Part shown: in pieces, positions 8,171 through 27,550 of the stretch
Layout of the letters: every line of letters begins with the position of its first letter
Position numbering within the stretch: the first letter of the stretch is position 1
NCBI GenBank assembly: GCA_021650915.1
Contig: CP091279.1
Coordinates: forward strand, 2,460,001 to 2,492,000
DNA length: 32,000 nucleotides
Reading direction: 5' to 3'
Origin: Candidatus Brocadia sp.
GTDB taxonomy: Bacteria > Planctomycetota > Brocadiia > Brocadiales > Brocadiaceae
Notes under the pieces: generated by a model
Seen by the model: only the letters and a program-made list of their open reading frames with translations
Databases searched by the model: none
Told to the model about the DNA's origin: nothing
Translations under genes and position numbers: made by a program

Positions 8171-8234
8171 ATTATATCACCGCCTTTTGTAAAGCCTGCT
8201 TACTATAGATACTCTGCTCGAATTTACAAACACA

Positions 8235-8269
8235 ATGAGGGTAGCAAATAACTTTTCTGCTACCCTCAT
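8235..8269 (-). terminator. Terminator-like hairpin downstream of the HOX-like gene
   Basis: Perfect 11-bp inverted repeat ATGAGGGTAGC (8235-8245) / GCTACCCTCAT (8259-8269) with a 13-nt loop. It lies 58 nt after the stop at 8327. The minus-strand trailing sequence TGTGTTTGTAAATT is moderately T-rich. Confidence 0.55.
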
Positions 8270-8326
8270 CGCTTAAACCTTTTTAACTACTACTTTTAGA
8301 ATCTGGACTTGTTACCAGATTACCGC

Positions 8327-9934
8327 TTAGTGACCATGCGGCGCAACACCAGCGTCTGCATTTGCACGGTGAGGAATATCAGTTCTCTTAAACCATTCAA
8401 CATCTACGTCGCCTGGTTTTCTTATCCAGCCTGGGAGTAAATCCAGGTATTCACCATGCTGCCAGAACCCTTCTGACTTGTGCTCTAAACCAATCTTTTT
8501 CTCAATGGCGGCAAACCTTCTTAGCTTCGCTGCCTCGGTCTTGATTTCAACCAACTTTCTATCCTGTTCGAAGGCACTTCCGTTTCCATATGTCTGGTTG
8601 TACATTGACATATGAGCGTAGGCTTTGTAAACGTTACCAGTAAGATAGCAAATCATTTCAAGACCTAAACGTTCCAGGTTTGAAGTAGCGTAGAACCTGG
8701 GATCTCCACCTGGCAACAAACTGAACGTATAGTGACCATACCAATCAGGAGGCGAACCCTCTGGCATTGGATCAACAACTCCATCCAGGAAGCAACCAAC
8801 GATAACCGCCGCAGCTTCTCTCCATTTGGTAAAGCTCAAATTAACACCAGCATCCATTTCTTTTAGTTTGTCAGCAGCAAACCTTGGGGAATGGCAGTCC
8901 TGACACTTCTTTATCCATGCATCTCGCTTTGCCTTGTGTTTTGGCGCTCCACGATCGACCTGGAACATACCCATATCGCTATAGATGGTTCCAAATTGTT
9001 GCGGATTGTGATTTCCATCCTGCATGTGGCAATAAGCGCATGTTGGGACTCTGTAGTTGCCTTTCTTGGAAGGCTTACTCCAGTCCATAGTGGCTGATTC
9101 TGCTTCATACAAGCAACCATGAACAGAGGTGTTGTACATTGCCCATTCATCATGATCTATACCCATATGGCAGTATCTGCAGGCAGTTGGCTTCCTCGCC
9201 TCAGCAGGGCTAAACACATGTCTCGTATGACAACCATCACAACGATTTTCTACGATGGCATGACACTCTGCGCAACCGGCAACCTCTTCAGCCGGCTTTC
9301 CTACATGCCATGAAAATTCCAATACGTTCACCGTATAAGCATGGGTATGCGAACCTAATCCACCCGACCTGTGTTCGGAAGTCTCTCTTGGATGGCACTC
9401 ACCGCAATTTTTGTACGTTGGCATAAAAAGCTTCTGATGATCATTGCCATGACATGCATCACAGCCGACGGTGCCTTCAACTGGCTTTCCATCTTTCCCC
9501 TTTACACCAAGCCCTCTTCTCATTTCCAAATTGCCATGGGCGCTCTTCTTCCAATCCTTTACAATGGTTGGAGTCTGCACCGTATGACAAAGAACGCACT
9601 CTTCATTCTTAAAAACACCTTCATTCTGACTACCATTTGTCCAATAATGTTCCGGATCATACCAACGAATTGAAGGTAAAAATTTCAAAAACGATTTATA
9701 AGGACCTCTTCCATCGACATAATCAGGCTTAGTATATTTTGCCGTTAATCCAAACACATACAATGTCCCGTCGTTATCCGGACCAACTGCCTGACCAAAC
9801 ACTTGCGATGCTACATCCTGAAATGTAGGTCCTTCTGCCTTCGCAACACTATTACCCACCGTACACGTCAGCAGCGATACTCCCGCTACAGCAAGAGCGA
9901 TCCTGGACAACGGCTTCTTCAAAATATCAAGCAT
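8327..9934 (-). CDS. hao: Octahaem HAO-family cytochrome c (hydroxylamine oxidase HOX-like)
   Basis: 535-aa ORF with a signal peptide (ALAVAGVSLLTCTVGNSVAKA). It has eight canonical sites: CVLCH, CDACH, CGECH, CAECH, CDGCH, CRYCH, CAYCH, CQDCH. SD AAAGGAGAGG precedes the ATG at 9934. The subtype (HOX versus another HAO paralog) is only inferred from the length and the all-CXXCH pattern. Confidence 0.8.
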   Translation of the reverse strand: MLDILKKPLSRIALAVAGVSLLTCTVGNSVAKAEGPTFQDVASQVFGQAVGPDNDGTLYVFGLTAKYTKPDYVDGRGPYKSFLKFLPSIRWYDPEHYWTNGSQNEGVFKNEECVLCHTVQTPTIVKDWKKSAHGNLEMRRGLGVKGKDGKPVEGTVGCDACHGNDHQKLFMPTYKNCGECHPRETSEHRSGGLGSHTHAYTVNVLEFSWHVGKPAEEVAGCAECHAIVENRCDGCHTRHVFSPAEARKPTACRYCHMGIDHDEWAMYNTSVHGCLYEAESATMDWSKPSKKGNYRVPTCAYCHMQDGNHNPQQFGTIYSDMGMFQVDRGAPKHKAKRDAWIKKCQDCHSPRFAADKLKEMDAGVNLSFTKWREAAAVIVGCFLDGVVDPMPEGSPPDWYGHYTFSLLPGGDPRFYATSNLERLGLEMICYLTGNVYKAYAHMSMYNQTYGNGSAFEQDRKLVEIKTEAAKLRRFAAIEKKIGLEHKSEGFWQHGEYLDLLPGWIRKPGDVDVEWFKRTDIPHRANADAGVAPHGH

Positions 9935-10049
9935 TACAACCTCTCCTTTCTTTCTTAACCTATACCTTATAAACTACATTTATTACCTAACAGCCTCCTT
10001 AAAAACCTTAGGTAACCGTAGACACAACTAAATTTCTTTACCTGCCAAA

Positions 10050-10063
10050 ACCACCCCCCTTCC
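10050..10063 (-). promoter_or_regulatory. Extended SD-like G-rich leader motif, copy 2 of 3
   Basis: The coding strand reads AATGGGAAGGGGGGTGGTTTTGG, 116 nt upstream of the HOX-like ATG. It is followed by GTAAAG...TTGTGTC, as in the HDH-like leader. Confidence 0.4.
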
Positions 10064-10235
10064 CATTTCTTTTTTTCTTGTAATATCTGTTGAAATCCGT
10101 AAATAGTACAACAACAGTACAAAGCTCTTCCATTATACTTTTAGAATCGTTCTTGTCAAGCACATTTTGTGCATCTTTTTACGAAGAAAACATCCCATAT
10201 TTTGCAAGTTTAGTCATTGTTACGGCGCCAAACAC

Positions 10236-10283
10236 GAAGAGCTGGGCAGTGGGGAATAACCCCCACAGAAGACCCAGCTCTTC
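10236..10283 (-). terminator. Compound hairpin downstream of hzsA
   Basis: Outer 11-bp inverted repeat GAAGAGCTGGG (10236-10246) / CCCAGCTCTTC (10273-10283). An inner GTGGGG/CCCCAC pair lies within it. It begins 65 nt after the hzsA stop at 10348. The T-tract after it on the minus strand is weak (GTGTTTGG). Confidence 0.5.
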
Positions 10284-10347
10284 ATGACGTTAATATCCGT
10301 GAGTCCTGGCTTTCACAACCGACAAGCTCAGCGACCTCTCTCAGGCA

Positions 10348-12780
10348 TTATCTTGAATGATACCCCGGATAGAGATCAGGACCCTGGATGTTGTCCCACT
10401 GTGCCCCTATATCAATCCACTCAACAAACAAATACCTCTCATCCTGCGTGAGGAACTTGTCATGCATTACTCTTCCCTCTATCGGGAATACATTCTCCCT
10501 CGGTGCAAACTGACTCAACGCCGTCTCATACAGCCTCCAAATTAACAAACTGTTGATGGCCGACGACGGATTGACATACTTACCACCAAGGTTGGCGTCC
10601 TTGCCCCTCTGCGGCTCAAGCAAGCTGGTGTACGCACGGCTGAATGCCGACACGCCATCCACACTCACTAACTCCGATCCACCCGACAAATCCGGTGAAC
10701 TGCCCGCATTGTGACAACCTGCACACTTCACATCAATGATCGGCTGAATGTCCCTGCGGAAATCCACCGTTCTCCTCTTATCATCCGTTAACCCTTCCAC
10801 CGGCTGAGATGTCGTTCCTGACGGGCCTCCATAATACACATCCGAAGGCACCACCACATCGTCCCCGTGCTTTACTCCCTGATAGATTCCACTCTTGTCA
10901 AATTTCAGGTACCCAAACGCAAAGGGTGAATCATAATGGCTCCGGTCATCATACCACCAGTTGTACAACGCCTTCGCATGCTGGTTCTGGAACGCCCTGC
11001 CACGGTACGATCCGTCATGACAACCACTGCATATCCTGCCATGATACGGCCTCAAATACGCCCATACCAACGCCGTCTGCACCGCCATTCCCCTCTCATC
11101 CAGGTTCTGGATATAGTACGGGGTGTCAGCCGTCTGAGACGTTACCACTGAACCATCATCCTCTACATACTGATACCCGATGATCCGCCTCTGCTGGAAC
11201 GCTGTGCCTGAGTTGCTGCTTGAACGACATCCACCCAACAGGTGACTGCCCGCACCAACCTTGAACCTGCTTGCATCCGGCTCAACACACTGCGTACCTT
11301 CCACTATCCTCACCGCCTTCACATCGCCCCGCTTTGTATCCTTCGCCTTCTGATGCGGATAAGGACCTACCGGGATATCGGTCAACGTCGTGTCAAAACA
11401 AATCCACGTTGCCCATGAATGCGGATACCCTTCCACTTTCACCTGATCAAACGGCTGATACGTCACCGTCGTTACCCCAAAGTTCTTTCCGGCCGTAAAG
11501 GTGTTGATCCACCTCGGACGGTACTTAACGTATATCGGGGCCGGCTGATGATCGTTCCACTCAGGATCATTGTGCACCAATTCCCCAGCCTTGCCATTCT
11601 TGAAATCAAACCAATAGATGCCGAAATCTCCACGCTCTGCATATGACACCAACATCCTGTCGTCAGGAAGCGGATACGGACTCCGGTACAATCCACCATC
11701 ATCCTTCGTCAACCTCTCATAGGTCTTGTTATACGGGGCATCCCAGCTTACCGATGCCAACTGACCTACTCCCCAGTTCATATACGGCGACTCTACATAC
11801 ACCAATCTCCTGTCCCCGAACGTGATCTTGGCCTGTGACCTGCCACTTGCACCGCCAACCTCACCCTCGCAGTTCCCATAGATCGGCCTCGGATACGCAC
11901 CGTCCCAGTTGTCTACACACAGCATTACCCGACCCTTGCCCCCTGCCCTGCTGCCATTGGCCTGGGTGCTGGAGAACAGGATGTTTCCATCCGGCGTCGT
12001 CGTCGGATCAAAGTTCGAACTGATGTTGTAGGTGATCTGGTCTATCGTCGTATTGATGCTCGGGAACTCTATACCCGACAACACGTGACCGGTAATTCTC
12101 TCCGTCACATGCCCGCCCTGCGTATCCAACCGGAACAGGTTATACGCATACGGATTGTGGAACTCATCCATGACGCCGTCCGGAGAACCTGCAAAGATGA
12201 TGAACCCGGTCTTCTCTACCGTGCCCCTCTCCTTCCAGTCTCCTTCAAAGTACCGGTCACGCCATATGATGCGTCCCTGACCTTCTTCGATACTGCCTGC
12301 TGCATAATAGATCGGCGCACGGCAGGTGCCCTTGTAATCCGTCATCTGCCTCAAACCGCTGCCGTCTACGTTCATCTCCCATATCTGGCATCCGCCGCCC
12401 TTCTTGTGCACCCCGGCAAATGCAAATTTCTTCCCGTCCCAATACGTTGAAGGATCAAAGGCCGTTGCAAAATCATTCGTCAATACCTTCAATTCCTTCG
12501 TCTTTAAATTGTACAGCACAATCCGGCTGCCCTCTGGCACATAGTGCGGATAGTTCTGATACGGATCTCCCTTTGTCGTCCTCGGTGACTGCGTAAATAA
12601 TAACGCATCGACCGGACCCTGCACTTCCTTCGACATCCCGCTATAATCAGTCCATAAGGCCTTTCCCTGCTTCGAACCGCCTACCATCACCTGGTTGCCC
12701 GATGCAAAGACGCTCCCACAGACCAACGCACCTGCCATGATCGCAGACGCCACCACTCCTCCTATTTTCCTCTTACTCAT
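10348..12780 (-). CDS. hzsA: Hydrazine synthase alpha subunit
   Basis: 810 aa from the ATG at 12780 (SD GAAAGGAGAAGG). The track start at 12819 adds 13 aa with no SD. It has a signal peptide (GGVVASAIMAGALVCGSVFA) and a long propeller-like N-terminal part. Two haem c sites are present: CSGCHDGSY (11005-11031, Tyr four residues after the His, as I recall for the haem alpha-I site of the K. stuttgartiensis structure) and CAGCH. Size and context next to hzsB/hzsC agree. Confidence 0.92.
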   Translation of the reverse strand: MSKRKIGGVVASAIMAGALVCGSVFASGNQVMVGGSKQGKALWTDYSGMSKEVQGPVDALLFTQSPRTTKGDPYQNYPHYVPEGSRIVLYNLKTKELKVLTNDFATAFDPSTYWDGKKFAFAGVHKKGGGCQIWEMNVDGSGLRQMTDYKGTCRAPIYYAAGSIEEGQGRIIWRDRYFEGDWKERGTVEKTGFIIFAGSPDGVMDEFHNPYAYNLFRLDTQGGHVTERITGHVLSGIEFPSINTTIDQITYNISSNFDPTTTPDGNILFSSTQANGSRAGGKGRVMLCVDNWDGAYPRPIYGNCEGEVGGASGRSQAKITFGDRRLVYVESPYMNWGVGQLASVSWDAPYNKTYERLTKDDGGLYRSPYPLPDDRMLVSYAERGDFGIYWFDFKNGKAGELVHNDPEWNDHQPAPIYVKYRPRWINTFTAGKNFGVTTVTYQPFDQVKVEGYPHSWATWICFDTTLTDIPVGPYPHQKAKDTKRGDVKAVRIVEGTQCVEPDASRFKVGAGSHLLGGCRSSSNSGTAFQQRRIIGYQYVEDDGSVVTSQTADTPYYIQNLDERGMAVQTALVWAYLRPYHGRICSGCHDGSYRGRAFQNQHAKALYNWWYDDRSHYDSPFAFGYLKFDKSGIYQGVKHGDDVVVPSDVYYGGPSGTTSQPVEGLTDDKRRTVDFRRDIQPIIDVKCAGCHNAGSSPDLSGGSELVSVDGVSAFSRAYTSLLEPQRGKDANLGGKYVNPSSAINSLLIWRLYETALSQFAPRENVFPIEGRVMHDKFLTQDERYLFVEWIDIGAQWDNIQGPDLYPGYHSR

Positions 12781-12875
12781 CTGTTGGCCTTCTCCTTTCA
12801 CTATTTTTGGAATTCTCAAATATTTCTCTCATTCTCCAAAGGGCAAACACCTGGTTCACCCCTCCACAAAACCTC

Positions 12876-13900
12876 TTACAGCGCCTTCAGGAATTCAACC
12901 AGGTCCTGCATCTCCTGCTGAGTCAAATGCGACGTCCTTCCATGCATGTCCTTCTCATTCACCGTGTTGTTGATCGTGTCTATCAACGTCCGGGCTCCCC
13001 CGTCATGGAAATACGTACCCGATGCATAAATATCCCTCAACGTCGGCGTGTCAAACTCCTTCACCAGGTCCAGCCCGATGATCGGCGTGTCACTCTCCTC
13101 GCCATAGGGATCTTCCCCTGCCTCTAATGCCTTCAGGTTAAAGACCTTTCCCGGCGTTGAACGGAAACCCTTTACCCCAACACGGCCCGTCCCCACGTCA
13201 TGGGTCTGCGCATCGCTAAAAAGCGCCTTCGGATCACTTGCATCACCCGGATGGCACTCCACACATCCCACATTCGGATCGTTGAATATCTTCTCGCCCT
13301 CTTCTGCGCATCCGTCAGCGAACCATCCGGATTCCTGAACGGACTTCCCGTGAATTCCAGCGCACGGATGTAGCAGATCAACGCCTCCAACCTCAATGGC
13401 GAAAAGTTCTCACTCCTGAACACAAACCCAGGGTCTCTTCCGCACACCCTGTCCAGCGAACTCGTTGCTCCCACGATCTCATCCGGATGTCCCGTGAATC
13501 CCTCATGACGGAACGGCGGCAAATACCTTCCCCCACGGATGTACTTCGTGTTCTTCCAGCTTCCCCATCCCTCATCACCAAGGTCCCAGATCAATCCCGT
13601 CGTCTGGCCCCTCTCGTAATGACAGCTCGCGCATGCATACTCACCCTGAAGACCCCAAGATGCATCGTTAAACTGGAACTGCCCGTACCGCACCAGCTCG
13701 CTCTTGTACGGTGAGTGCTTTACCCGATAATGCACCTCCGGCACCGTAAGCGGTTCTGCCCGCGGAAGCGGCTCCCACTCCGGCCCCGTCTGGATCGTCG
13801 CCACTACCTGCGGCGTACCGGCCATCAACTGGCCAGTCGTCGCTACCCCCATGATCCCCAGAGCGGCTATCAAACCGATCTTTTTTATTCCACTTTTCAT
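12876..13900 (-). pseudogene. hzsC: Hydrazine synthase gamma subunit (dihaem, CCP/MauG-like), frameshifted as assembled
   Basis: The start ATG at 13900 has SD TAAGGAGGAG and a signal peptide (MKSGIKKIGLIAALGIMGVATTGQLMAG). The first haem site CASCH lies in the frame of ORF 13172-14089. The second site CVECH lies in ORF 12876-13271, one frame over. The frames join at coding-strand CAGAAGAGGGCGAGAAG (plus-strand ccc at 13297-13299). Adding one G restores ...DAQKRGEKIFNDPNVGCVECHPG.... The span is 1025 nt, one short of a multiple of 3. Confidence 0.85.
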
Positions 13901-14004
13901 AACTCTTTTCTCCTCCTTAATGAATTGCCCTATTTCTGAATTCTTACCGCTTATCACTCTCTTACTACTTTTCTCTCTGTAATCAGCACGACTATGCGCC
14001 ACAA

Positions 14005-15135
14005 TTAATCCACCGGCGTCCTTATCACGGACACGTTGTTGGAAAAATAGTTCGCTGCATAGCAATACTTCCCATCCGGTGATAAACACACTGAGCTTGG
14101 CCCAAGTCCCGTCGGCACCCTGGCCACCAGATAATCCCTTACAAATCCAAGATCATCCCTCAGGTAATCCAGCTCCGCCTGTGAATTCCCGCGCACGGCG
14201 TTCAACACCTTCGCCATATCCAGGATCGTTACCCGGTGCATGCCTCTTACCCCAATATACAGATACCGGCCCTTCGGATCCATCGCCAACCCGTACGGAT
14301 TTCCATCGTAGTTGTTCAACTCATCCAGCGGCAACCGCGCTACCTTACCACCCGGCTTCGTCTCCAGCACCGCGATGTTGTTCGTAAAGACCTGCCCGTT
14401 CTCTGCCTCGCACACCGGCAACCAGTTCTTCGGCGTCTCATACGTCACCACCACATACTGCCCATCAGGCGTATATACCACATCCCTCAGGTTGGAACTC
14501 TCACGGATTACCCGCTTCTCAAGCACACGGCTCGTGTCCACATCAATAAAATTCACGCTCCGGCTAATCGAACCTACCGTGTCATTAATCACCGCAAGCG
14601 TCTTGCCGTCCGGCGATATGTCCAAGGTCCTTGGACCGTAATCACTCGTGTAGATCGCCCTCGTCTTCTCCATCCTCCCCGTGTCTATCACATCAACCGT
14701 GTTCCACATATTTCCCGAACATGCAACGTATGCCGTCTTCCCGTCTCTGGAAATCTTTATCCCGCTTGGCCAGTCCCCCACCTTGATCTCCTTGACGACC
14801 TGCTTGCGCGCCACGTCAATCACCGACACGCTGTCGCTCTCGGCATTGCATACATACAAAAACGCATTGTCCGGCGTTGTCGCCGCCGCCTCAGGCTGCA
14901 CTCCTACCGCAACCTCACCCGTCACCTTCTGCGTCCGGGCATCCACAAACGTCACGCTATGCCCCGACTGATTGCAGATATACAACGTCCCTCCATCCGG
15001 CGACGTCGTGATATGAAACGGCCCCGGCAGATCCGTCTTCACGTGTGTCCCCTGGATAAACCCAGCGCTCGACACACCCACCACCGACAGCACCGCTCCC
15101 ACTACCGCTGCTCCTATCCATCCTCTTCCTTTCAT
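14005..15135 (-). CDS. hzsB: Hydrazine synthase beta subunit (beta-propeller)
   Basis: 376 aa from the ATG at 15135 (SD GGAGGGAAGGAAG). The track start at 15225 adds a basic 30-aa extension that overlaps the leader. It has a signal peptide (GWIGAAVVGAVLSVVGVSSA). Repeated propeller blades are visible: SPDGGTLYICN, TPDNAFLYVCN, SRDGKTAYVAC, SPDGKTLAVIN, TPDGQYVVVTY, DPKGRYLYIGV, SPDGKYCYAAN. Confidence 0.9.
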   Translation of the reverse strand: MKGRGWIGAAVVGAVLSVVGVSSAGFIQGTHVKTDLPGPFHITTSPDGGTLYICNQSGHSVTFVDARTQKVTGEVAVGVQPEAAATTPDNAFLYVCNAESDSVSVIDVARKQVVKEIKVGDWPSGIKISRDGKTAYVACSGNMWNTVDVIDTGRMEKTRAIYTSDYGPRTLDISPDGKTLAVINDTVGSISRSVNFIDVDTSRVLEKRVIRESSNLRDVVYTPDGQYVVVTYETPKNWLPVCEAENGQVFTNNIAVLETKPGGKVARLPLDELNNYDGNPYGLAMDPKGRYLYIGVRGMHRVTILDMAKVLNAVRGNSQAELDYLRDDLGFVRDYLVARVPTGLGPSSVCLSPDGKYCYAANYFSNNVSVIRTPVD

Positions 15136-15251
15136 CGCTCTTCCTTCCCTCCTATATCTTCGATTTTTAGGAATATAAATCTGAAACTTTCTTAATACGC
15201 CATCCACATAACTTCTGAATCGCAAAACCTACCGCTTAAAAAATTTTCCCT

Positions 15252-15264
15252 ACCACCCCCTTTC
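15252..15264 (-). promoter_or_regulatory. Extended SD-like G-rich leader motif, copy 3 of 3
   Basis: The coding strand reads TTATGAAAGGGGGTGGTAGGG, 117 nt upstream of the hzsB ATG at 15135. GGATTATAAG lies about 30 nt further upstream, similar to GAGATTATACG (HDH-like leader) and CAGATATTACAAG (HOX-like leader). Confidence 0.4.
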
Positions 15265-15374
15265 ATAATTTGTTGGCTGGTCTTTGCGTCTTATAATCCA
15301 AATGCTAAAATTCTATTAAGACAAAAAACCAAACCGGAAGATACGTGAAAAAATTTATTGCGTGTATAGCATAG

Positions 15375-15390
15375 AGCAACAACCGTGCCG
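15375..15390 (-). promoter_or_regulatory. Candidate sigma-54 (-24/-12) promoter facing hzsB
   Basis: The minus strand reads CGGCACGGTTGTTGCT, against the consensus TGGCACG-N4-TTGCW. It matches at 15 of 16 positions, with the GG-N10-GC spacing exact. It lies about 240 nt upstream of the hzsB ATG and 373 nt downstream of the stop of a sigma-54-dependent activator gene. Confidence 0.6.
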
Positions 15391-15462
15391 TATTTTTTTC
15401 AACATCATGAGCAAACCGTAACTCTTTGTAAATAAACCTATTATAAAAATTATTGTGCAAAC

Positions 15463-15482
15463 AGTCTTTTAGGCAAAAGACT
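15463..15482. promoter_or_regulatory. Perfect palindrome, possible enhancer-binding-protein site (UAS)
   Basis: AGTCTTTT-AGGC-AAAAGACT is centred about 82 nt upstream of the -24 element. That is the usual distance range for bEBP binding sites. There is no independent support. Confidence 0.3.
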
Positions 15483-15762
15483 ATAATTGGTCACTACACA
15501 TTTCGATCTTTTTGTAGCACGAGTTCTATCTCGTTATAAAAAAAGGGTATAAGGCGTGACTATTTTTGGTCATAAAATTTCATTGTATTGTCACGTTTTG
15601 ATGCGTTTTTTTCAGTAAGAAACATCTCACCTTAGACAAAAAGTGCGGGAAACGAAGAATGTTCCAAACATAGATTCTTTCGATGTGAAATTATTTTTTA
15701 TTGAGCGCCTTGAGTTTATTGCTTTTGTAAGTTTTTCGTGATCAGGCTGCCGTTTCATAGTG

Positions 15763-17151
15763 CTAAGACATTGATTTGTCAAACAATTGCAGCCGAACCA
15801 ATCTATTGCGAAGTGTCGTGCGCGGAACGCCTAAAATCTCCGCCATTTTGACTTGATTGCCATTCGTCTTTTGGTGTGCCCATTGAATAAGTTTTTTTTC
15901 CACTTCGGTAAGCGCGTCTTGCAAATTTATCGATTGTTTATTATATAAATCCATTGACAACAAGTCGGTGTTCACATCGTACTTTCTTAAATACTCCGGA
16001 AGAGTTTCCAATGAGATACCCTTGGATTTGGAGAATGCAACAGCGTGTTCAATAACATTTTCAAGCTCTCTTACATTCCCGGGCCAATCGTAGGCCATCA
16101 GGACCTCTTTTGCCTCTGGTGAAACATCCGGCAAGGCGTCTTCGTATTGCGACACAAACTTTCTTAAAAAATAGTTGATCAACAGCGGTATATCTTCCTT
16201 TCGTTCCCGTAATGACGGTATGCTGATTTGAACCACATTCAACCGGTAAAACAAGTCTTCCCGAAAATAACCCTCTTTTACCCGTTCAAGGAGGTCTTTT
16301 TTCGTTGCGCAGATAATTCTTACGTTAACACCAAGGGTTTCTTCTCCACCAACCCTTTCAAAAGTCCTCTCCTGAAGCACACGCAGGAGCTTGACCTGCA
16401 TATCCACAGGGATATCATCTACGTCATCCAGAAAAATTGACCCGCCATCCGCCAACTCAAACCTTCCGCGTCGAGTCTTAATTGCACCCGTAAATGCCCC
16501 CTTCTCGTGCCCGAAGAGCTCGCTCTCTAAAATTTCCCTGTTCAACGCGGCGCAACTTACCCTGATAAATGGCCCCGTTTTTCTGCTGCTGTGGTAATGA
16601 ATAGCGCCGGCTATTTTTTCCTTTCCGGTTCCGCTTTCTCCCCGTATCAGAACGGTTGTGTCCCTTTCAGAAACGCTCTTCACAATTTCAAGCACCTTTT
16701 TCATCGATTCACTCTTTCCGACAATATTGCAAAATTCAAATTCAGCCTGAATTTCACCTCTGAGACGATTTACTTCTGCAGCCGTGTTTTTGTGGTGAAG
16801 CGCCCTTTGCAGTTTGATCATCAACTCGTCTGTAGAGAAAGGCTTTGCAATATAGTCGTATGCACCATCCTTGATCGCAGATACGGCGCTTTCAAGGGTG
16901 CCATACGCCGTCATGATAACAACAATAATCTCCTGGTTGTATTTCTTTATTTCCTTGAGAAGCTCCATTCCATTCATGCCTGACAGTCTTAAGTCCGTGA
17001 CCACCACGTCGTAGTCTTCAGACTTCACCATTTTTAGCCCCTCGGTTGCATTATCCACCGATTTCACCTGATACCCATCCTTCCTTAACTGGCTCTCCAA
17101 GGATATCCTCATAAGTTTTTCATCGTCTACGATCAACACTTTACTACCCAT
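15763..17151 (-). CDS. Sigma-54-dependent two-component response regulator (NtrC/AtoC family)
   Basis: 462 aa. The REC domain has MGSKVLIVDDE and DVVVTDLRLSGMNG. The AAA+ domain has Walker A GESGTGKE, the sigma-54 contact loop GAFTGA, and FLDDVDD. A C-terminal Fis-type HTH is present (MAEILGVPRTTLRNRL). Confidence 0.9.
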   Translation of the reverse strand: MGSKVLIVDDEKLMRISLESQLRKDGYQVKSVDNATEGLKMVKSEDYDVVVTDLRLSGMNGMELLKEIKKYNQEIIVVIMTAYGTLESAVSAIKDGAYDYIAKPFSTDELMIKLQRALHHKNTAAEVNRLRGEIQAEFEFCNIVGKSESMKKVLEIVKSVSERDTTVLIRGESGTGKEKIAGAIHYHSSRKTGPFIRVSCAALNREILESELFGHEKGAFTGAIKTRRGRFELADGGSIFLDDVDDIPVDMQVKLLRVLQERTFERVGGEETLGVNVRIICATKKDLLERVKEGYFREDLFYRLNVVQISIPSLRERKEDIPLLINYFLRKFVSQYEDALPDVSPEAKEVLMAYDWPGNVRELENVIEHAVAFSKSKGISLETLPEYLRKYDVNTDLLSMDLYNKQSINLQDALTEVEKKLIQWAHQKTNGNQVKMAEILGVPRTTLRNRLVRLQLFDKSMS

Positions 17152-17175
17152 ACGATCACTCCTTGATATTTTGCA

Positions 17176-19479
17176 TCATGTCATTACCGTCACTTTTCTC
17201 ACCGGCAAACAGACATAAAATGTCGTTCCTTCCCCTGGATTACTCTTCACTACAATGTTCCCATTATGGTCATCGATGATCCTCTTGCTAATCGCAAGAC
17301 CTAAGCCGCTCCCCATCTCTTTTGTGGTAAAAAACGGGTTAAATATTTTACCGAGAATCTCTTCCGGAATCCCCGATCCCGTGTCAGCAATTGCCACTTG
17401 TATACTTGACGAATGAAAGTCACAATACCCGGTCTTTATGGTCAGGCTGCCCCCCTCCGGCATGCTATCCAGGGCGTTGACCATAATGTTAATAATGACT
17501 TGCGAGATATTGTCAGCGTCACCATAGATCTCGGGCAAATCCAGAGACAGCTCCTTCTCCAAAGAGATGCCGCGCTCTTTTATCCGATGCCCCACAAATC
17601 GTAAAGAATTTTCAACAATTTCACTTAAACTGTGGTTGGACATATGGGTGGAATATGGGCGGGAAAATGCCATCAACTGTTTTACAATCACCTCAATCCG
17701 TTTCAGGCCTTCTGACATTAAATCCAGAAATTCCCGGTTTTGCGATATGTTTTCAGGCTCTTTCCTCATCATTTTTACAAAATTCTGCAATCCGCCTAAT
17801 GGATTATTCACCTCATGGGCCACACCGGCAGCCAACTCACCCACCGCAGCCAACCGCTCGGCCTGAATCAGTTGCAACTCCATTTTTTTTCTCTCGGTAA
17901 TGTCCCGGCAAATCCACTGAATGGTCTTCCTTTTCCCGTATTCAATCACGCTGGCGCTGATACTCGTAGGAGTTAGCCCGCCGTCAACATGCTGGCAATC
18001 AACGTTATCCAGCATGCCGGAACCCGTCTCGTTTATCATCAACCACAATTGCCTTGTCTTTTCACAATCATATTCCGGGACAATTTCCCATATTTTTTTG
18101 TCATGTAATTCATTTTTCACGCACCCCGACAACTCCTCGGCCCTTTTATTCAAATCAACAATCTGCGCAGAGTCGGCATCCAGGGTAAAAATGGCATCGT
18201 TGGCCAGATTAATAGATTCCCGATACCTTTCCTCAGATTCTCTCAGCTGTGCGGTGCGTTCACGAATCTTTTGTTCAAGCCCTGCATACGACCCTTCCAG
18301 CTTTTCAGCCATTTTATTGAATTCTGAAGCAAGAACGCCCACTTCATCTTCAGAATTAATGGTAATGCGATGCCCCAGGTTCCCCTTGCCAATAGCATGC
18401 GCACCCTGCACCAGACGGGAAATAGGATGGGTAATTCCGTGTGACAGGGCAAAAACGATGACAACGATAATGAATACGCTTACTATCGCCAGGGTAATTA
18501 CCTGATTCTTCAATTCCATAATCGACTTAAAGGCCTCGGAGGTATCCTGCTTCACAATCAATCCCCATTTCAACGGCGATAGATAACGAAAGGCCAAAAG
18601 AACTTCCGTCCCTCTGTGATCAACAACCCTGGTGATGCCCTCTTCCTTTTCGTCCAGCATAAAAGACTCCGGCGCTATTGAATTCACCGGGATACTCATA
18701 GTGAGCGCCGTATCCGCCCGATGCCGCGTGTTGTTGAGAAATTGCAACTGATCACCCTTGCGGCGCACCAGGAGGGTCTCACCCGTTTCTCCGCTGCCTG
18801 GCCAATCCTGCAACAACCGTCCTATGGCCTTGTTTGTGTTTACCCGGATCGTGACGATTCCATTGATCACGTCTGTCTCCTCCATGGTAATCGGGTCTGT
18901 TCTCTTCATCGTGCCAAACAGAGTCATTCCTACCTGTTTTGTATACTCCGAATAGTGAATATCTTTAAACGGCAGCCCTTTATTTCCCAGCACATCAAGA
19001 TAATACCGGTAATCTCCATCGACTAATCCAATATTTGACTCGGTTGTAGACATCACAATCTCACCATTTTCTATATCCAGCATCGATATTTCATCACAAG
19101 AAATAAACTTTTCCTTGAGTTTACCCAGATATTCCGAAAGTCTCTTGTAATAGACATCGCCAATTTCAGATTCCTTCATCCTTTCAACGGAACGGAATGC
19201 CTGTCTTAAGTAAAGGAGATTAGAAAATGATACCTCCAGGGACTTATTTGTTGAAAGAACTCCAATATCAACCAGGCGCTCCTGCAACCAGTTGCTTAGC
19301 TGCGTCTTTTTTAATTCAGCAATCGAGGTCAGCTTCTCTGTCACCCTGTCGTTTAACGCCCTTTTCCCGCGGTTGTACGCCGTATTACTTACGATCAGAA
19401 TGGGCATCGTCGTCATGAGGATAAAATAGCAGATGAGCTTAACCTTGATGCTCTTAAAAAACCGAACAGACCCTTTCAT
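17176..19479 (-). CDS. Sensor histidine kinase (TM, Cache-like periplasmic domain, TM, HAMP, PAS, HisKA, HATPase_c)
   Basis: The ATG at 19479 has SD GGAGGAGAG; the track start at 19512 lacks one. Two hydrophobic segments flank a ~290-aa extracytoplasmic region. HAMP: PISRLVQGAHAIGKGNLGHRI...VGVLASEFNKMAEKL. PAS: DAIFTLDADSAQIVDLNKRAEELSG. H-box: GVAHEVNNPL (NtrB/AtoS-like). The G-boxes DTGSGI and GSGLGL are present. Its stop lies 24 nt before the regulator gene. Confidence 0.88.
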   Translation of the reverse strand: MKGSVRFFKSIKVKLICYFILMTTMPILIVSNTAYNRGKRALNDRVTEKLTSIAELKKTQLSNWLQERLVDIGVLSTNKSLEVSFSNLLYLRQAFRSVERMKESEIGDVYYKRLSEYLGKLKEKFISCDEISMLDIENGEIVMSTTESNIGLVDGDYRYYLDVLGNKGLPFKDIHYSEYTKQVGMTLFGTMKRTDPITMEETDVINGIVTIRVNTNKAIGRLLQDWPGSGETGETLLVRRKGDQLQFLNNTRHRADTALTMSIPVNSIAPESFMLDEKEEGITRVVDHRGTEVLLAFRYLSPLKWGLIVKQDTSEAFKSIMELKNQVITLAIVSVFIIVVIVFALSHGITHPISRLVQGAHAIGKGNLGHRITINSEDEVGVLASEFNKMAEKLEGSYAGLEQKIRERTAQLRESEERYRESINLANDAIFTLDADSAQIVDLNKRAEELSGCVKNELHDKKIWEIVPEYDCEKTRQLWLMINETGSGMLDNVDCQHVDGGLTPTSISASVIEYGKRKTIQWICRDITERKKMELQLIQAERLAAVGELAAGVAHEVNNPLGGLQNFVKMMRKEPENISQNREFLDLMSEGLKRIEVIVKQLMAFSRPYSTHMSNHSLSEIVENSLRFVGHRIKERGISLEKELSLDLPEIYGDADNISQVIINIMVNALDSMPEGGSLTIKTGYCDFHSSSIQVAIADTGSGIPEEILGKIFNPFFTTKEMGSGLGLAISKRIIDDHNGNIVVKSNPGEGTTFYVCLPVRKVTVMT

Positions 19480-19726
19480 CCCGCCGCTCTCCTCCCCCCC
19501 ATCCCCATCCAATTGTCCTTGCCTGGCCGTTTGCCATTTGCAGTCCTTTTATCCAAAATTATATTCACACCAAACCCTTAAATAAAGCGAATTTTCCTCT
19601 CTGCAACAGGAAAACCTCTTCTGCAAAACATTCTTTTGTTGACATAGCAGATGATTTATATTATTTTACGTACGTAATTACGTGGAAAAAATCCCCAAAA
19701 CTCTTTGTCTATAACAGGCAAAAGCA

Positions 19727-20893
19727 ATGCAGAGAATAAACAAAACCTGTCTTATCCTTACCATTTTCAGCATAGTATCCATTCTTTCCCAATGCAATCG
19801 CATCCAGGCAGAAAACGACAAAACTCCATGGCAGATGTTCAGAGGTGATATCCGGCACACCGGCCAAAGCGCTTACCGGGGAGCGCAGACAAACACCGTG
19901 AAATGGTCATACAAAATAGACACCCGCATTACCTCCTCTCCGGTCGTCGCATCGGACGGCACTATTTACTTCGGCTCCGTTGACGGCAGGCTCTATGCCA
20001 TTCATCCTGACGGCACCACAAAATGGGCGTTCCAGGCAGGCAGCGAGATAACCGCATCACCTGCCCTTGGAGATGACGGGACAATCTACATTGGCTCCCG
20101 GGACAAAAAAATGTATGCCATCACGCCGGATGGAAAGCCCAAATGGACGTACACCGCCGGAGATATCATCCTTTCTTCCGCGACGGTTACCCCTGACGCC
20201 CTGTATTTTGGTTCAAACGATAATACCCTTTACGTCCTTACCGCGGATGGCAAATTAAAGTGGAAATATACCGCCAAGAGCAATATTACGGCTGCACCTG
20301 CATTGGGGACGGATGGCACCGTCTACCTGTTCGAAATCAGCGGCGCTCTGCATGCTTTATCGCCGGATGGAGTTGAAAAATGGACGAAGCGCGTTGGAAC
20401 CGGCGTTTATGATTCCTATTCTTCACCATCAATCGGCGCAGACGGAACGGTGTATGTGGGAACGGACAGCGGACGGTTGGTCGCCGTAAAACCTGATGGC
20501 AATGTAAAATGGTACGTTAACACCGGAAAGGCCGTCCATTGCAGCCCTGCGATTGCCACCGACGGAACCATTGTCTTTGGGTCTTACAGCGGCATGGTGT
20601 ACGCTGTTACACCCGATTGCAAACTCAAATGGAGTTTTAAAACCAACGGCTGGGTGGAATCCTCTCCCGTCATTGACGCAGAAGGAACTGTTTACCTTGG
20701 TTCAAGCGACGGAAGACTCTATGCCATCAATGCAGGCGGCACCCTGAAATGGTCATATCAGACTAAGGGAGAGATCGAATCATCTCCGTCTATAGGACCC
20801 GACGGCACGGTGTATATTGGATCAAACGACTGCCACCTCTACGCCATAGGCGACACTTCACAGACAACATCCGTACCTGTGTTTGAAAAATAA
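19727..20893 (+). CDS. Secreted PQQ-like (BamB-like) beta-propeller repeat protein
   Basis: 388 aa with a signal peptide (CLILTIFSIVSILSQCNRIQA). It has about 8 tandem ~40-aa repeats of the form SSP.(I/V)..DGT(I/V)Y.GS.D..LYA(I/L).PDG..KW. Confidence 0.8.
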   Translation: MQRINKTCLILTIFSIVSILSQCNRIQAENDKTPWQMFRGDIRHTGQSAYRGAQTNTVKWSYKIDTRITSSPVVASDGTIYFGSVDGRLYAIHPDGTTKWAFQAGSEITASPALGDDGTIYIGSRDKKMYAITPDGKPKWTYTAGDIILSSATVTPDALYFGSNDNTLYVLTADGKLKWKYTAKSNITAAPALGTDGTVYLFEISGALHALSPDGVEKWTKRVGTGVYDSYSSPSIGADGTVYVGTDSGRLVAVKPDGNVKWYVNTGKAVHCSPAIATDGTIVFGSYSGMVYAVTPDCKLKWSFKTNGWVESSPVIDAEGTVYLGSSDGRLYAINAGGTLKWSYQTKGEIESSPSIGPDGTVYIGSNDCHLYAIGDTSQTTSVPVFEK

Positions 20894-21001: not shown

Positions 21002-21907
21002 ATGCCAGAAGCAGATACCCTGGATGACCTTACCGAGTCATTTATCAACTACCTCCTTGTAGAATGCGGTTTATCCAGGAATACCATCCTCAGTTACAGT
21101 CACGACCTGCAGCTCTTTACCCGTTTTCTGCTTTCAAAAGAGATATCCGGCTTTGACGGCGTCCGTCCCGACATGATTACAAGCTTTATCATTTCTGAAA
21201 AAAACCGCGGCCTTTCCATCAACTCCATCAGCCGCACCATCGTGGCTATCCGTATGTTATACAAATTCCTCCTTTCTGAAGGAAAACTCCGGACAAACCC
21301 ATTTACCGTAATTGATTCGCCAAAGCTCTGGAAGAGATTGCCGGAAGTCATTCCCGTTCATAAGATCGATGACCTCCTTGCGGTCCCCAACACGCAAACG
21401 AAATTAGGGATGAGAAACAAGGCTATTCTTGAACTCATGTACGCCACCGGCGCGCGGGTGTCGGAGGTTGTTGCAATTCAGATGGACTGGGTTAATCTTG
21501 AATACCGCTACATGAAGTGCAGAGGCAAAGGCTCAAAGGAACGAATTGTGCCCCTTGGAACAAAGGCGATTGAGGCGATTCAGGGTTACTTAACCCTTGC
21601 CAGGCCAGAGCTAAAGAACAGCAGGGACAGCGCGTATCTCTTCCTTTCAAAGGCCGGAAGACCCCTCAGAAGAGAGAATATCTGGGTTGTCGTGAAGAAC
21701 TGTGCCGCAAAAGCCGGTATCCCCGGGAAGATATCCCCCCATAAGCTGAGGCATTCGTTTGCCACCCACCTGCTGGAAAACGGCGCAGACCTGCGTTCCG
21801 TACAGGAAATGCTCGGGCATGTCAATGTCTCAACCACCCAAATCTATACCCATGTCGGCAAACAGCACCTCAAGGCTATCCATCGCCATTACCACCCACG
21901 GACATGA
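21002..21907 (+). CDS. xerD: Tyrosine site-specific recombinase, XerC/XerD family
   Basis: 301 aa. It has an N-terminal SAM-like domain (FINYLLVECGLSRNTILSYSHDLQLF). The catalytic residues are in context: ATGARVSE, HKLRHSFATHLLENGADLRSVQEMLGH, STTQIYTHV. The C-terminus ...HYHPRT resembles XerD, but XerC versus XerD is not resolvable by eye. Confidence 0.8.
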   Translation: MPEADTLDDLTESFINYLLVECGLSRNTILSYSHDLQLFTRFLLSKEISGFDGVRPDMITSFIISEKNRGLSINSISRTIVAIRMLYKFLLSEGKLRTNPFTVIDSPKLWKRLPEVIPVHKIDDLLAVPNTQTKLGMRNKAILELMYATGARVSEVVAIQMDWVNLEYRYMKCRGKGSKERIVPLGTKAIEAIQGYLTLARPELKNSRDSAYLFLSKAGRPLRRENIWVVVKNCAAKAGIPGKISPHKLRHSFATHLLENGADLRSVQEMLGHVNVSTTQIYTHVGKQHLKAIHRHYHPRT

Positions 21908-21938: not shown

Positions 21939-24158
21939 TTACGCATCGCATAAAACATTATGACGCATTTCCATCTTCCCAAACTCATCAGCGGGCAATG
22001 GTTTGCAGAATAGATACCCCTGCATCTCGTCGCATTGACGCTGCTTCAGGAATACGAGCTGTTCCTCATTCTCAACCCCTTCAGCAACGACCTTGAATTT
22101 CAAGCTTTGCGCCAGGGCAATAACGGACGACACAATTACCTTGTCATTTTGGTCCGTTGCAATGCCGCTTACGAAATGCTGGCTAATTTTTAGCTTATGA
22201 ATAGGAAATTTTTTGAGATAATACAGAGAAGAGAAGCCGGTGCCGAAATCATCGATAGAAATTTGAATCCCCATCGAGCTTAATCGTTCCAATTTCCCGA
22301 TCGTCGTTTCCATATCCTGCATTGCAATGCTCTCGGTAATTTCTATCCCCAGAAATTGCGGATCGAGACCGGTCTTTTGCAAGATAGACGTAACCATTTC
22401 CACAAGGTTGGGCTGCTGAAAGGTGCGAACTGAAATGTTCACTGCTACAGACAGGGGCTGATGTCCTTCATCCTGCCATACCTTGCACTGTTTACAAACG
22501 GTATACAGCACTAACTCATCAATAAATACGATTAAACGGGTATTTTCTGACAGGGCAAGGAATTCATCCGGAAGAACGAGTCCCCTTTCCGGGTGCCGCC
22601 AACGCACCAGGGCTTCCATGCCGACAACCAGGCCGGTGTTAATACTCACAAGAGGTTGATAGTAAACATCAAATTCCTCGCGCTCCAGAGCGCGGTGAAG
22701 GTTACATTCCAGCAGCATCTTGTCAAAGGACTTGGCGTGCATCGCCGCCGTGTAAAACTGGTAGGTATTTTTCCCCTGTTCCTTGGCGCAATACATGGCG
22801 GCATCGGCATTCCTCAGCAGGATTTCCGCGCTATCGCCATGATTGGGATAAATGGCAATGCCAATACTCGCCGTAATGTAGAGTTCGTGCTTGCTGATGC
22901 TCCACGTTCGTTTGAATGCATTGAGGATTTTGCATGCAATATTGGTTACGTGGTCAACCTGAGTGATCCCCACCATTAAGAGCGTGAATTCATCGCCGCC
23001 GAAACGGGCAACGGTGTCTTCTTCACGCACACAGCTCTTCAACCGGTCGGCAACCTCACGCAGCAACTGGTCTCCCATCGTGTGCCCCAGCGCATCATTG
23101 ACGGCCTTGAATCTGTCCAGATCAAGAAACAACACGGCAAGGATTTCATCCATCCGCTGTGCATGAGCCAATGCGATGGTCAGGCGGTCGTTGAATAAAA
23201 TACGGTTGGGCAGGGCGGTAAGGCTGTCATGGAAAGCCATATGCCTGATTCTTTCTTCTATCCGTTTGCGTTCTTCGATTTCGCACTGGAGTTCTTCGTT
23301 TACCCTCATTAACGCCGATGTTCGCTCTGCCACGCGTTGTTCCAAAGATTCATTGAGCGCCCTTAGTTCTCTCTCTAGCTGTTTGCGTTCGGTAATATCC
23401 TGGACGACCCCGTTCATCTGAATTGCCCTGCCGGTATCATCAAAAACGACTTCGGCCTGTGCCTGGACAACGCGCTCAAAGCCACCCGGCAAAACAATGC
23501 GATAGTCAATCCGATATGGTTTTTCTTCATATAATGCATCGCGAACGGATTGTCTCACAAATTCCCTGTCGGCAGGATGAACGAAATCGAGAAACGCCTC
23601 ATAGGTTGTGCTACAGGCGGAGGGCACCAATCCGAAGATGCGGTAGACCTCATCGGACCAGCGCACTTCATTTTTTCCGATGTCCCATTCCCAATTTCCC
23701 AGGTGGGCAATTCTTTGCGCATTGGCAAGACTGGCTTCGTTTTTCCGCAACGCCGCTTCCGCCAGCCTGCGCCTGCGCCGTTCCTCAACCTCGATCAATT
23801 CCCGCTCAATAGCCGGAACCAGTCGCGTCAGATTGTCCTTCATAATGTAATCATGAGCGCCGGCTTTCATAGAAGAAACCGCGAGTTCTTCTCCTATCGA
23901 GCCAGAAACGATAATAAACGGCATGTCCTGTCCGCTGAGTTGTAACTGTGTCAGAGCCCCGAAAGAGCTAAAAAACGGCATGGAATGGTCTGCAAGAACG
24001 ACGTCCCACTCCTGTGCATCGAGCATCATCTTCATGGCTGCGGCTGTTTCAACCCGTTCAAACAAAGGTTCATAGCCCCCGCGTCGCAGTTCACGAAGCA
24101 TCAATTCAACGTCATCCATCGAATCATCTACAACCAGTACGCGAAGGGGGGCTTTCAT
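21939..24158 (-). CDS. Response regulator with PAS, GGDEF and EAL domains (c-di-GMP turnover)
   Basis: 739 aa. REC: LRVLVVDDS...DVVLADHSMP. A coiled coil plus PAS follow (GNWEWDIGKNEVRWSDEVYRIFG). The GGDEF domain has an intact RFGGDEF, and the EAL domain an intact EALVRW...DDFGTG. Its start overlaps the upstream REC gene stop in an ATGA (24155-24158). Confidence 0.9.
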   Translation of the reverse strand: MKAPLRVLVVDDSMDDVELMLRELRRGGYEPLFERVETAAAMKMMLDAQEWDVVLADHSMPFFSSFGALTQLQLSGQDMPFIIVSGSIGEELAVSSMKAGAHDYIMKDNLTRLVPAIERELIEVEERRRRRLAEAALRKNEASLANAQRIAHLGNWEWDIGKNEVRWSDEVYRIFGLVPSACSTTYEAFLDFVHPADREFVRQSVRDALYEEKPYRIDYRIVLPGGFERVVQAQAEVVFDDTGRAIQMNGVVQDITERKQLERELRALNESLEQRVAERTSALMRVNEELQCEIEERKRIEERIRHMAFHDSLTALPNRILFNDRLTIALAHAQRMDEILAVLFLDLDRFKAVNDALGHTMGDQLLREVADRLKSCVREEDTVARFGGDEFTLLMVGITQVDHVTNIACKILNAFKRTWSISKHELYITASIGIAIYPNHGDSAEILLRNADAAMYCAKEQGKNTYQFYTAAMHAKSFDKMLLECNLHRALEREEFDVYYQPLVSINTGLVVGMEALVRWRHPERGLVLPDEFLALSENTRLIVFIDELVLYTVCKQCKVWQDEGHQPLSVAVNISVRTFQQPNLVEMVTSILQKTGLDPQFLGIEITESIAMQDMETTIGKLERLSSMGIQISIDDFGTGFSSLYYLKKFPIHKLKISQHFVSGIATDQNDKVIVSSVIALAQSLKFKVVAEGVENEEQLVFLKQRQCDEMQGYLFCKPLPADEFGKMEMRHNVLCDA

Positions 24159-24649
24159 TTATTGTCTTCCCCTCTCGTGTCCGGAGATTTGTTCAGGAGA
24201 AGCCAATAAATCGCCAATCGCCCTACCGCCTCCGAGAATTGAGTAAAATCAACCGGTTTTTGAACATAGCTATTAGCGCCGAACTTGTAACCGTTAACCA
24301 CGTCCCTTTCCTCACTTGAGGACGTGAGAATAACCACCGGAAGGTGTTTCGTTCGTTCGTCAGAACGCAGTCGTTGCAAAACTTCAAGACCATCCACCTT
24401 TGGCAGTTTTAAATCCAGCAGCACAACCTCCGGCAGTTTACCGATGTCTCTGCCGGCATGCCTGCCATCACCAAAAAGATACTCAAGCGCCTCTGTCCCA
24501 TCACTGGTTATCACCACCTCGTTCATAATATGATATTTTTTGAACGCGCGCAGTATCAGCTCTGCGTCGTCCTGATTGTCTTCCACAAGCAAGACGACCT
24601 TGGATTGCGTCTTTGTGATTATCGATTGCTGATCTGTCGTCATTACCAC
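24155..24649 (-). CDS. Single-domain (CheY/Rcp-like) response regulator
   Basis: 164 aa. Motifs: VVLLVEDNQDDAELI, VVLLDLKLPKVDG, PVVILTSS, GANSYVQKP. No output domain is present. Confidence 0.85.
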   Translation of the reverse strand: MVMTTDQQSIITKTQSKVVLLVEDNQDDAELILRAFKKYHIMNEVVITSDGTEALEYLFGDGRHAGRDIGKLPEVVLLDLKLPKVDGLEVLQRLRSDERTKHLPVVILTSSSEERDVVNGYKFGANSYVQKPVDFTQFSEAVGRLAIYWLLLNKSPDTRGEDNK

Positions 24650-24763
24650 TCTTTTACCCTATCAAACCTCTATGGGATGATCTGCACAACTGAGCCGGCA
24701 GTAAATATAACAAAAAAATTACGATTATCGAAATTCTAAAACATTACTTCCCGATTTGCAATC

Positions 24764-27478: not shown

Positions 27479-27550
27479 CTGTGATACTCCATAAATCCGT
27501 ATTATCATATCATTGAATGAGGCATTCGGCGGCTTTGTTTGATGTCACAC

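Follow-up and report, generated by a model that had tools for sequence, protein, structure and literature searches.

We analyzed a 32,000-nt stretch of DNA from Candidatus Brocadia sp. (assembly GCA_021650915.1, contig CP091279.1, forward-strand positions 2,460,001-2,492,000; hereafter, the window), in which the hydrazine synthase operon hzsBCA lies on the minus strand downstream of a histidine kinase gene (HK_A) and a sigma-54 activator gene (RR_A). Hydrazine synthase is the defining enzyme of anaerobic ammonium oxidation (anammox), which matters for global nitrogen loss and wastewater treatment. On the minus strand the order is HK_A, a 24-nt gap between the HK_A stop and the RR_A start, RR_A, a 627-nt non-coding gap, hzsB, hzsC, hzsA, and an octahaem gene resembling HAO. 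The operon was recognized by an HZS_alpha protein together with beta-propeller and dihaem subunits, and the HzsB of the window is 100% identical to database proteins from Ca. Brocadia sp. The genes in question and the promoter element discussed below are located as follows.

17176..19479, minus strand: HK_A, membrane sensor histidine kinase, 767 amino acids from the ATG at 19479 (Pfam)
15763..17151, minus strand: RR_A, NtrC-family sigma-54 activator with REC, AAA+ and HTH_8 domains, 462 amino acids (Pfam)
15375..15390, minus strand: sigma-54 type -24/-12 element CGGCACGGTTGTTGCT, with a predicted start site at ~15364
14005..15135, minus strand: hzsB, hydrazine synthase beta-propeller subunit, 376 amino acids (Pfam domains and database identity)
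12876..13900, minus strand: hzsC, dihaem subunit, with its reading frame broken near 13298 in the window
10348..12780, minus strand: hzsA, alpha subunit (HZS_alpha, PF18582, E = 7e-29)

Judging from sequence comparisons, we consider it likely (a probability of roughly 0.8) that the 627-nt gap holds a functional sigma-54 promoter for this copy of hzsBCA and that RR_A activates it.

The -24/-12 element and its conservation

The element CGGCACGGTTGTTGCT lies 240 nt before the hzsB ATG and faces hzsB. An earlier note on this DNA had read it as departing from the TGGCACG-N4-TTGCW consensus in its first base only (15390-15375, minus strand), and this reading was confirmed: there is one mismatch, and the GG and GC stand at the correct 10-nt spacing. 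It is the sole match with at most one mismatch in the 32 kb, where 0.29 would be expected. The scan with a position weight matrix that the same note had proposed also put it at the top of the window, with 17.6 bits, followed by a site of 12.6 bits inside hzsB; the matrix is approximate and was built for this analysis. Over all of the locus sequence collected, sites of at least 10 bits have a background of 0.22 per kb per strand, and the window scan gave none upstream of either HAO-like gene, which bears out the claim that the two HAO genes are preceded by no comparable element. At least one match with at most one mismatch also appeared in 25 of 100 dinucleotide shuffles of the window, meaning that the match is not beyond chance by itself. 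Since the window statistics alone are not significant, comparative analysis was used to decide.

For this purpose, 62 hzs loci from species-representative genomes were retrieved with an alignment of 21 HzsB proteins, along with 10 places encoding identical HzsB. The loci were sorted by tblastn with the proteins of the window and those of a second locus type, and the gap immediately upstream of the first operon gene was scanned for the element. Three upstream arrangements emerged. Type A (i.e., HK_A, RR_A, gap, hzsB) is found in the window, B. pituitae, Loosdrechtia, several Brocadiaceae metagenome-assembled genomes (MAGs), and four Scalindua loci. Type B (34 loci) consists of kuste2854-, kuste2855-, and kuste2856-like genes, another activator gene (RR_B), a gap, a kuste2858-like gene, and hzsB, and type B' (13 loci) has the order of type B without RR_B.

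The GG-N10-GC core is present in all 15 type A loci, 185-330 nt before hzsB (150 nt in locus L067), and in 33 of the 34 type B loci, 73-135 nt before the kuste2858-like gene. It was found in none of the 13 type B' loci, whose best scores (~2 to 11 bits) are mostly within the shuffle range, the two highest falling inside the kuste2858-like coding sequence. The element, then, accompanies an adjacent activator gene at 48 of the 49 loci that have one and at 0 of the 13 that do not. Because it tracks the adjacent gene for an enhancer-binding protein, its distribution matches the prediction for a functional sigma-54 promoter. Separate checks revealed it in Jettenia, B. sinica, and Wujingus as well. 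In addition, the HK_A-RR_A-hzsB synteny is kept from Brocadia to Scalindua, so that both the element and the kinase/activator pair recur at related hzs loci, which is the check that the earlier note had proposed. In a nine-species alignment of type A gaps with a mean identity of 44%, the invariant positions are held by the columns of the element (GG..A......TTGC) and by those of the dyads described below.

Candidate activator sites and the HK_A-RR_A pair

Upstream of the element, two 16-bp dyads of the form TGAC-N8-GTCW, centred at ~-121 and ~-200, are conserved and make candidate activator sites. They are listed here together with a weaker dyad and an inverted repeat.

15557..15572, minus strand: distal upstream activator site, perfect dyad TGACCAAAAATAGTCA, ~-200 from the predicted start; candidate by conservation
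15478..15493, minus strand: proximal upstream activator site, dyad TGACCAATTATAGTCT, ~-121, 79 bp from the distal site; candidate by conservation
15578..15593, minus strand: weak third dyad TGACAATACAATGAAA, 21 bp upstream of the distal site
15463..15482, no strand assigned: inverted repeat AGTCTTTTAGGCAAAAGACT of the earlier note, 8-bp arms with an asymmetric 4-nt centre

The pair recurs in most type A loci, plus Jettenia, B. sinica, and Wujingus, at about -121/-200 in Brocadiaceae and -143/-223 in Scalindua; the distal dyad ranges from -200 to -214 in the former, stands at -223 in the latter, and is also found in a Kuenenia-like locus. In most loci where both dyads were found they are 78-80 bp apart (94 bp in L054), and the third dyad reads TGAC-N8-GACA in most relatives (seen, e.g., in L010, L017, and L054). 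The strict TGAC-N8-GTCW form has a background of 0.08 per kb in the collected loci, and the window contains 7 distinct matches (10 counting both strands) vs 1.5 expected. With neither a kinase nor an activator gene next to it, a Kuenenia-like hzs copy (L020) retains the dyads and TGGCGTATTTATTGCA, arranged as in the other loci; the cis elements are accordingly part of hzs and not of the regulator genes. Other exact matches in the window lie in the last RR_A codons (15766-15781, minus strand), within HK_A (17407-17422), and at the start of an integrase gene (21025-21040), and these are probably due to chance.

The inverted repeat had been described as a perfect palindrome at the position where a bacterial enhancer-binding protein would sit. 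Its 8-bp arms are indeed present at 15463-15482, but the 4-nt centre is asymmetric. We rejected AGTCTTTTAGGCAAAAGACT as an activator site, given that it is imperfect and that its right arm is not conserved in orthologous loci; the left arm constitutes the right half of the conserved proximal dyad. Inspection of the gap by eye, with no formal test run, gave no convincing match to an IHF site.

RR_A carries Response_reg (E = 7e-32), Sigma54_activat (PF00158, E = 8e-70), AAA_lid_14, and HTH_8 (E = 6e-10) domains according to Pfam. Its translation contains the receiver Asp53 (VVVTD53L) with DD9-10 and K103, a Walker A motif (GESGTGK), and a GAFTGA loop, and thus the GAFTGA, Walker A, and Fis-type helix-turn-helix (HTH) features attributed to it beforehand are all there. 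The best NCBIfam matches are AtoC, NtrC, and ZraR, each below its equivalog cut-off (474.8 vs 714, 455.4 vs 558.6, and 417.7 vs 760, respectively), and the closest solved structures are NtrC-family activators. The best 120 homologues are all at least 85% identical to RR_A, and every one of these with a named organism comes from anammox bacteria. RR_A follows HK_A in the complete Jettenia genome (CP091278), B. sinica, and Wujingus, and stands directly before hzsBCA where the contig continues.

HK_A and RR_A are co-conserved in at least 13 loci. HK_A comprises a transmembrane segment, an extracytoplasmic sensor of ~300 amino acids, a second transmembrane segment, and HAMP, PAS, HisKA, and HATPase_c domains; its open frame runs on to a TTG at 19512, and gene calls within the species give 767 or 778 amino acids. 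It had been labelled a Cache-HAMP-PAS kinase with an NtrB-like H-box. The HAMP, PAS, HisKA, and HATPase_c domains are supported by Pfam, and the Cache part by the predicted fold only. At the sequence level, dCache_1 reached E = 0.16 on the sensor (11.9 bits vs a cut-off of 45), and a search recovered only 5 homologues, with one distant homologue carrying PF02743. An AlphaFold2 model of the sensor, of medium confidence (predicted local distance difference test, 65; predicted template modelling score, 0.58) and built on a very shallow 6-sequence alignment, matched only dCache/tandem-PDC sensor domains in the PDB (best E = 1.8e-8), making the Cache label plausible at the fold level. The kinase core resembles AtoS more than it does NtrB, with both scores below cut-off (312 bits vs 646 for AtoS and 135 vs 240 for NtrB, i.e., NR(II)), and HK_A is a membrane protein with two transmembrane segments instead of a cytoplasmic one. 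As no curated NCBIfam equivalog cut-off was reached by either protein, that of ZraS included, HK_A and RR_A are best described as NtrC-class members outside any named orthologous group.

Between the predicted start and hzsB, two further features were noted.

15136..15364, minus strand: predicted 5' untranslated leader of ~229 nt, with a Shine-Dalgarno-like box and the true ribosome-binding site AGGAGGG
15253-15264, minus strand: Shine-Dalgarno-like box GAAAGGGGGTGG (GAAAGGRGGTGG), conserved in Brocadiaceae type A leaders

In every Brocadiaceae type A leader, among them those of Jettenia and a Kuenenia-like locus, this strong box precedes the hzsB ATG by 103-143 nt; the Scalindua leaders lack it. 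A leader peptide associated with this box was rejected, as the leader alignments contain no conserved small open reading frame, and so was a conserved RNA structure of the leader, for which the consensus fold had 0 pairs. The 627-nt gap matches no Rfam family and contains no terminator-like site. In one assembly of the same species (L067, GCA_029287005.1, 9836-10001), 90 nt of the hzsB leader are missing, including most of the Shine-Dalgarno-like box, in an otherwise identical sequence; the deletion is either a true variant or was introduced by the assembly.

A second hzs copy with another activator

The species of the window has both main locus types, and B. pituitae and the MAG H5_AMX3 each carry one type A and one type B locus. 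The paired hzsBCA copies are 99.9% identical (L001 vs L003 and L006 vs L007; positions 9981-14890). This stretch of identity opens at the ribosome-binding site, exactly 20 nt ahead of the hzsB ATG, and closes ~120 nt past hzsA, and such sharp repeat boundaries suggest gene conversion. Leaders and promoters lie outside the repeat, so the sigma-54 promoter, activator, and site type differ between the two copies. It also follows that only reads from the leader region separate the two copies in transcriptomics, since their coding sequences are indistinguishable. Two identical hzs sets have likewise been reported in Kuenenia CSTR1 (PMC7709395).

RR_B is the orthologue of kuste2857 at the second hzs copy and is followed by a -24/-12 element of its own. 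It is ~42% identical to RR_A and has no adjacent kinase; unlike RR_A, it follows the kuste2854-2856 electron-transfer genes, and the promoter downstream of it precedes the kuste2858-like gene. The candidate RR_B site, again by conservation, is a TGGY-N8-RCCA dyad centred at ~-130, present in 20 of 25 type B gaps, and no TGAC-N8-GTCW was found in type B gaps. The HTH recognition helices of the two activators differ (PRTTLRNRL in RR_A vs TRGTFRYRL in RR_B), which fits their different dyads. Collectively, these sequence features would imply that hydrazine synthase receives two separate sigma-54 inputs.

In Walker B, RR_B proteins carry the canonical DE. Several Brocadia RR_B sequences (the set of L001, L006, L013, L051, L064, and L066, which includes the species of the window) read GAFTNA or GAFTSA for GAFTGA and FFMDE for FFLDE. 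The gene is frameshifted in B. carolinensis (L013), and in the MAG MFD09964 (L009, 8927-9136) a 210-nt remnant is all that is left of it, the -24/-12 element being gone. In some Brocadia, the type B control region may accordingly be undergoing decay. Among the type B loci, that of Scalindua sediminis (L035, 8610-8640) alone has no -24/-12 match, its -24 box being scrambled: it reads TGTGCCATAATATGCT, and its close relative L030 has TGGCACATAATATGCT there. The S. sediminis genome also has a type A locus (L052). In Scalindua type B gaps (L042, L045, L048, L037, and others), a sigma-70-like TTGACA-17 nt-TAGATT is conserved ~60 nt upstream of the RR_B dyad, pointing to sigma-70 and sigma-54 promoters arranged in tandem in marine anammox bacteria.

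The window itself (8000-19500) joins a type A upstream region to a flank of HAO, trpB, and trpA; in B. pituitae, as in short-read assemblies of the window's species (L001, L003, L063, and L064), it is the type B copy that precedes this flank. The two hzs copies are mutually inverted in B. pituitae. The join looks as if it arose either through recombination between the 4.9-kb repeats, giving an inversion, or through joining across the repeat during assembly.

Proposed regulation and alternative explanations

The findings described above fit an ordinary NtrC-type two-component sigma-54 system, within which we infer the start site, the binding of RR_A, and the signal to the kinase. RNA polymerase with sigma-54 would bind the -24/-12 element (15390-15375) as a closed complex. 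HK_A would sense a small molecule outside the cytoplasm through its dCache-like domain and phosphorylate the adjacent RR_A on the receiver Asp. Phosphorylated RR_A would then assemble on the dyads near -121 and -200, with the weaker third dyad 21 bp upstream, and its GAFTGA loop would contact sigma-54 so that, at the expense of ATP, the promoter opens and transcription starts near 15364 with a ~229-nt leader. The central proposal of the earlier note, that hzsBCA is gated by the adjacent two-component pair through sigma-54, is thus supported by conservation, co-occurrence, and synteny.

Well-studied systems offer several points of comparison. As in NtrB/NtrC-glnAp2, AtoS/AtoC, and ZraS/ZraR, the kinase is encoded together with a REC-AAA+-HTH_8 activator, and these systems further share the GG-N10-GC promoter, several dyads 100-200 bp upstream, and GAFTGA. 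What differs is that RR_A has DD instead of DE in Walker B, that the target would be a catabolic hydrazine synthase operon, and that the predicted sensor of HK_A is a membrane dCache-like domain, whereas NtrB is cytoplasmic. The TGAC-N8-GTCW dyad also seems unlike the NtrC site. DctB/DctD, which controls dctA, similarly combines a periplasmic tandem-PDC (dCache) kinase with an NtrC-family activator and tandem upstream sites, and the DctB sensor domains 3by9 and 3e4p are among the fold matches of the HK_A sensor model; however, the sensors have no detectable sequence relationship, and HK_A has an extra HAMP-PAS module. In Kuenenia stuttgartiensis (kuste2854-2861), the hydG/atoC-like kuste2857 resembles RR_A in being a sigma-54 activator gene directly upstream of hzs.

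We tentatively extend this to a fuller picture, to which we give somewhat less than even odds. In it, the two hzsBCA copies would be kept identical by gene conversion and each wired to a different sigma-54 activator and site, with RR_A driven by a dedicated dCache kinase whose signal, in the periplasm or anammoxosome, would be a substrate or intermediate of anammox (ammonium, nitrite, NO, hydroxylamine, or hydrazine). If true, a signal-transduction pathway in control of anammox catabolism would be defined for the first time, with one enzyme under two independent enhancer-dependent inputs.

Several observations weigh against a promoter activated by RR_A. The first base of the motif is C instead of T, and most Brocadiaceae relatives read TGGTAT, not TGGCAC, a replacement that accounts for their modest matrix scores (10-14 bits). 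The Walker B motif of RR_A is IFLDDV, with Asp at the position of the catalytic Glu and hence not the canonical hhhhDE; enhancer-binding proteins normally carry FLDE with that Glu. FLDDV is found in all RR_A orthologues except that of Scalindua L041 (FLDEV). The change is conservative and might lower ATPase activity. A regular expression for the RpoN box found no match in the window and related loci (~0.95 Mb of anammox sequence). The presence of RpoN is implied by the two conserved GAFTGA activators per genome, and in K. stuttgartiensis CSTR1 RpoN is annotated and was detected in the proteome (KsCSTR_22140 = kuste3730; supplement of PMC7709395). Hydrazine synthase is among the most abundant anammox proteins (PMC7709395), which could fit an unrecognized constitutive promoter. 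Finally, 13 hzs loci have neither an adjacent activator nor a -24/-12 element, and no terminator separates RR_A from hzsB, so read-through is possible.

The last two observations, together with the TTGACA-17-TAGATT sequence upstream of the sigma-54 element in Scalindua type B loci, would suit an alternative in which the element is real but secondary, that is, most hzsBCA transcription comes from an unrecognized housekeeping promoter or from HK_A-RR_A read-through and sigma-54 only modulates it under particular conditions. We regard this as unlikely. The conserved blocks of the gap are the sigma-54 element and the dyads, and sigma-70-like sites in it are at chance level with none conserved; this latter test is a weak one, as the E. 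coli consensus may not suit planctomycete housekeeping promoters.

Another alternative is that HK_A-RR_A controls a different target (the neighbouring beta-propeller gene at 19727-20893 or its own operon) and that its place before hzs reflects synteny without regulation. In its favour, 15 Brocadiaceae loci keep the beta-propeller gene as a neighbour. Against it, the -24/-12 element and the dyads are downstream of RR_A and face hzsB, the interval 19480-19726 contains no dyad and no site of at least 10 bits, and Scalindua loci of type A retain HK_A-RR_A along with the dyads, the promoter, and hzsB but have no beta-propeller gene, which together make this alternative very improbable. That the consensus match is a functionless chance occurrence in an AT-rich spacer, as the 25 of 100 shuffles might allow, is hardly credible given that the element stays fixed in position across genera while its flanks diverge and that its presence tracks the activator gene.

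We therefore favour activation of a sigma-54 promoter by RR_A. We know of no pure culture of, or genetic system for, anammox bacteria, and for this reason almost nothing is known of what controls their catabolic genes. For the Kuenenia hzs cluster, kuste2857 has already been listed as a sigma-54 response regulator (PMC6423088, PMC12053348), and the novelty assumed for the present arrangement is reduced to that extent; in the literature on anammox, Kuenenia, and hydrazine synthase, we found no description of promoters, dyads, the HK_A-RR_A pair, or dual wiring. Where there had been a bare annotation (a sigma-54 regulator within the cluster), our analysis would offer a specific model with two promoters, two activators, two dyad types, and one sensor kinase, and it is the first concrete, testable regulatory model for the key anammox enzyme. 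Tests of its parts need no anammox culture, since E. coli or purified proteins would serve, and the ligand of HK_A would reveal the environmental cue that sets hydrazine synthase levels.

Other features of the locus

In the window, a single nucleotide missing from a G run (GAGGGGC to GAGGGC; 13290-13305, minus strand) breaks hzsC into two frames, and the gene is intact in other assemblies of the same species and in B. pituitae. The frameshift is probably a homopolymer sequencing error of the long-read assembly, although it could also be genuine in one of the two copies. The Scalindua type A loci L031 and L052 have the regulator pair and the promoter before hzsB and hzsC, with no hzsA within 10 kb downstream, and in L052 the hzsB-like gene occurs as a tandem pair. 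What the type A system controls in Scalindua may be a partial or variant hzs set.

The gene divergent from HK_A has the following location.

19727..20893, plus strand: exported beta-propeller protein (PQQ_2/BamB-like)

It adjoins HK_A in 15 Brocadiaceae type A loci (72-100% identity) and does not do so in Scalindua. Beyond it, a second signalling cluster occupies 21939-27508 on the minus strand and is adjoined by an XerD-like integrase gene (21002-21907). This cluster encodes a 914-amino-acid kinase with dCache_1, HAMP, and multiple PAS domains (24764-27508), a single-domain receiver (24155-24649), and a REC-PAS-GGDEF-EAL protein (21939-24158), all on the minus strand.

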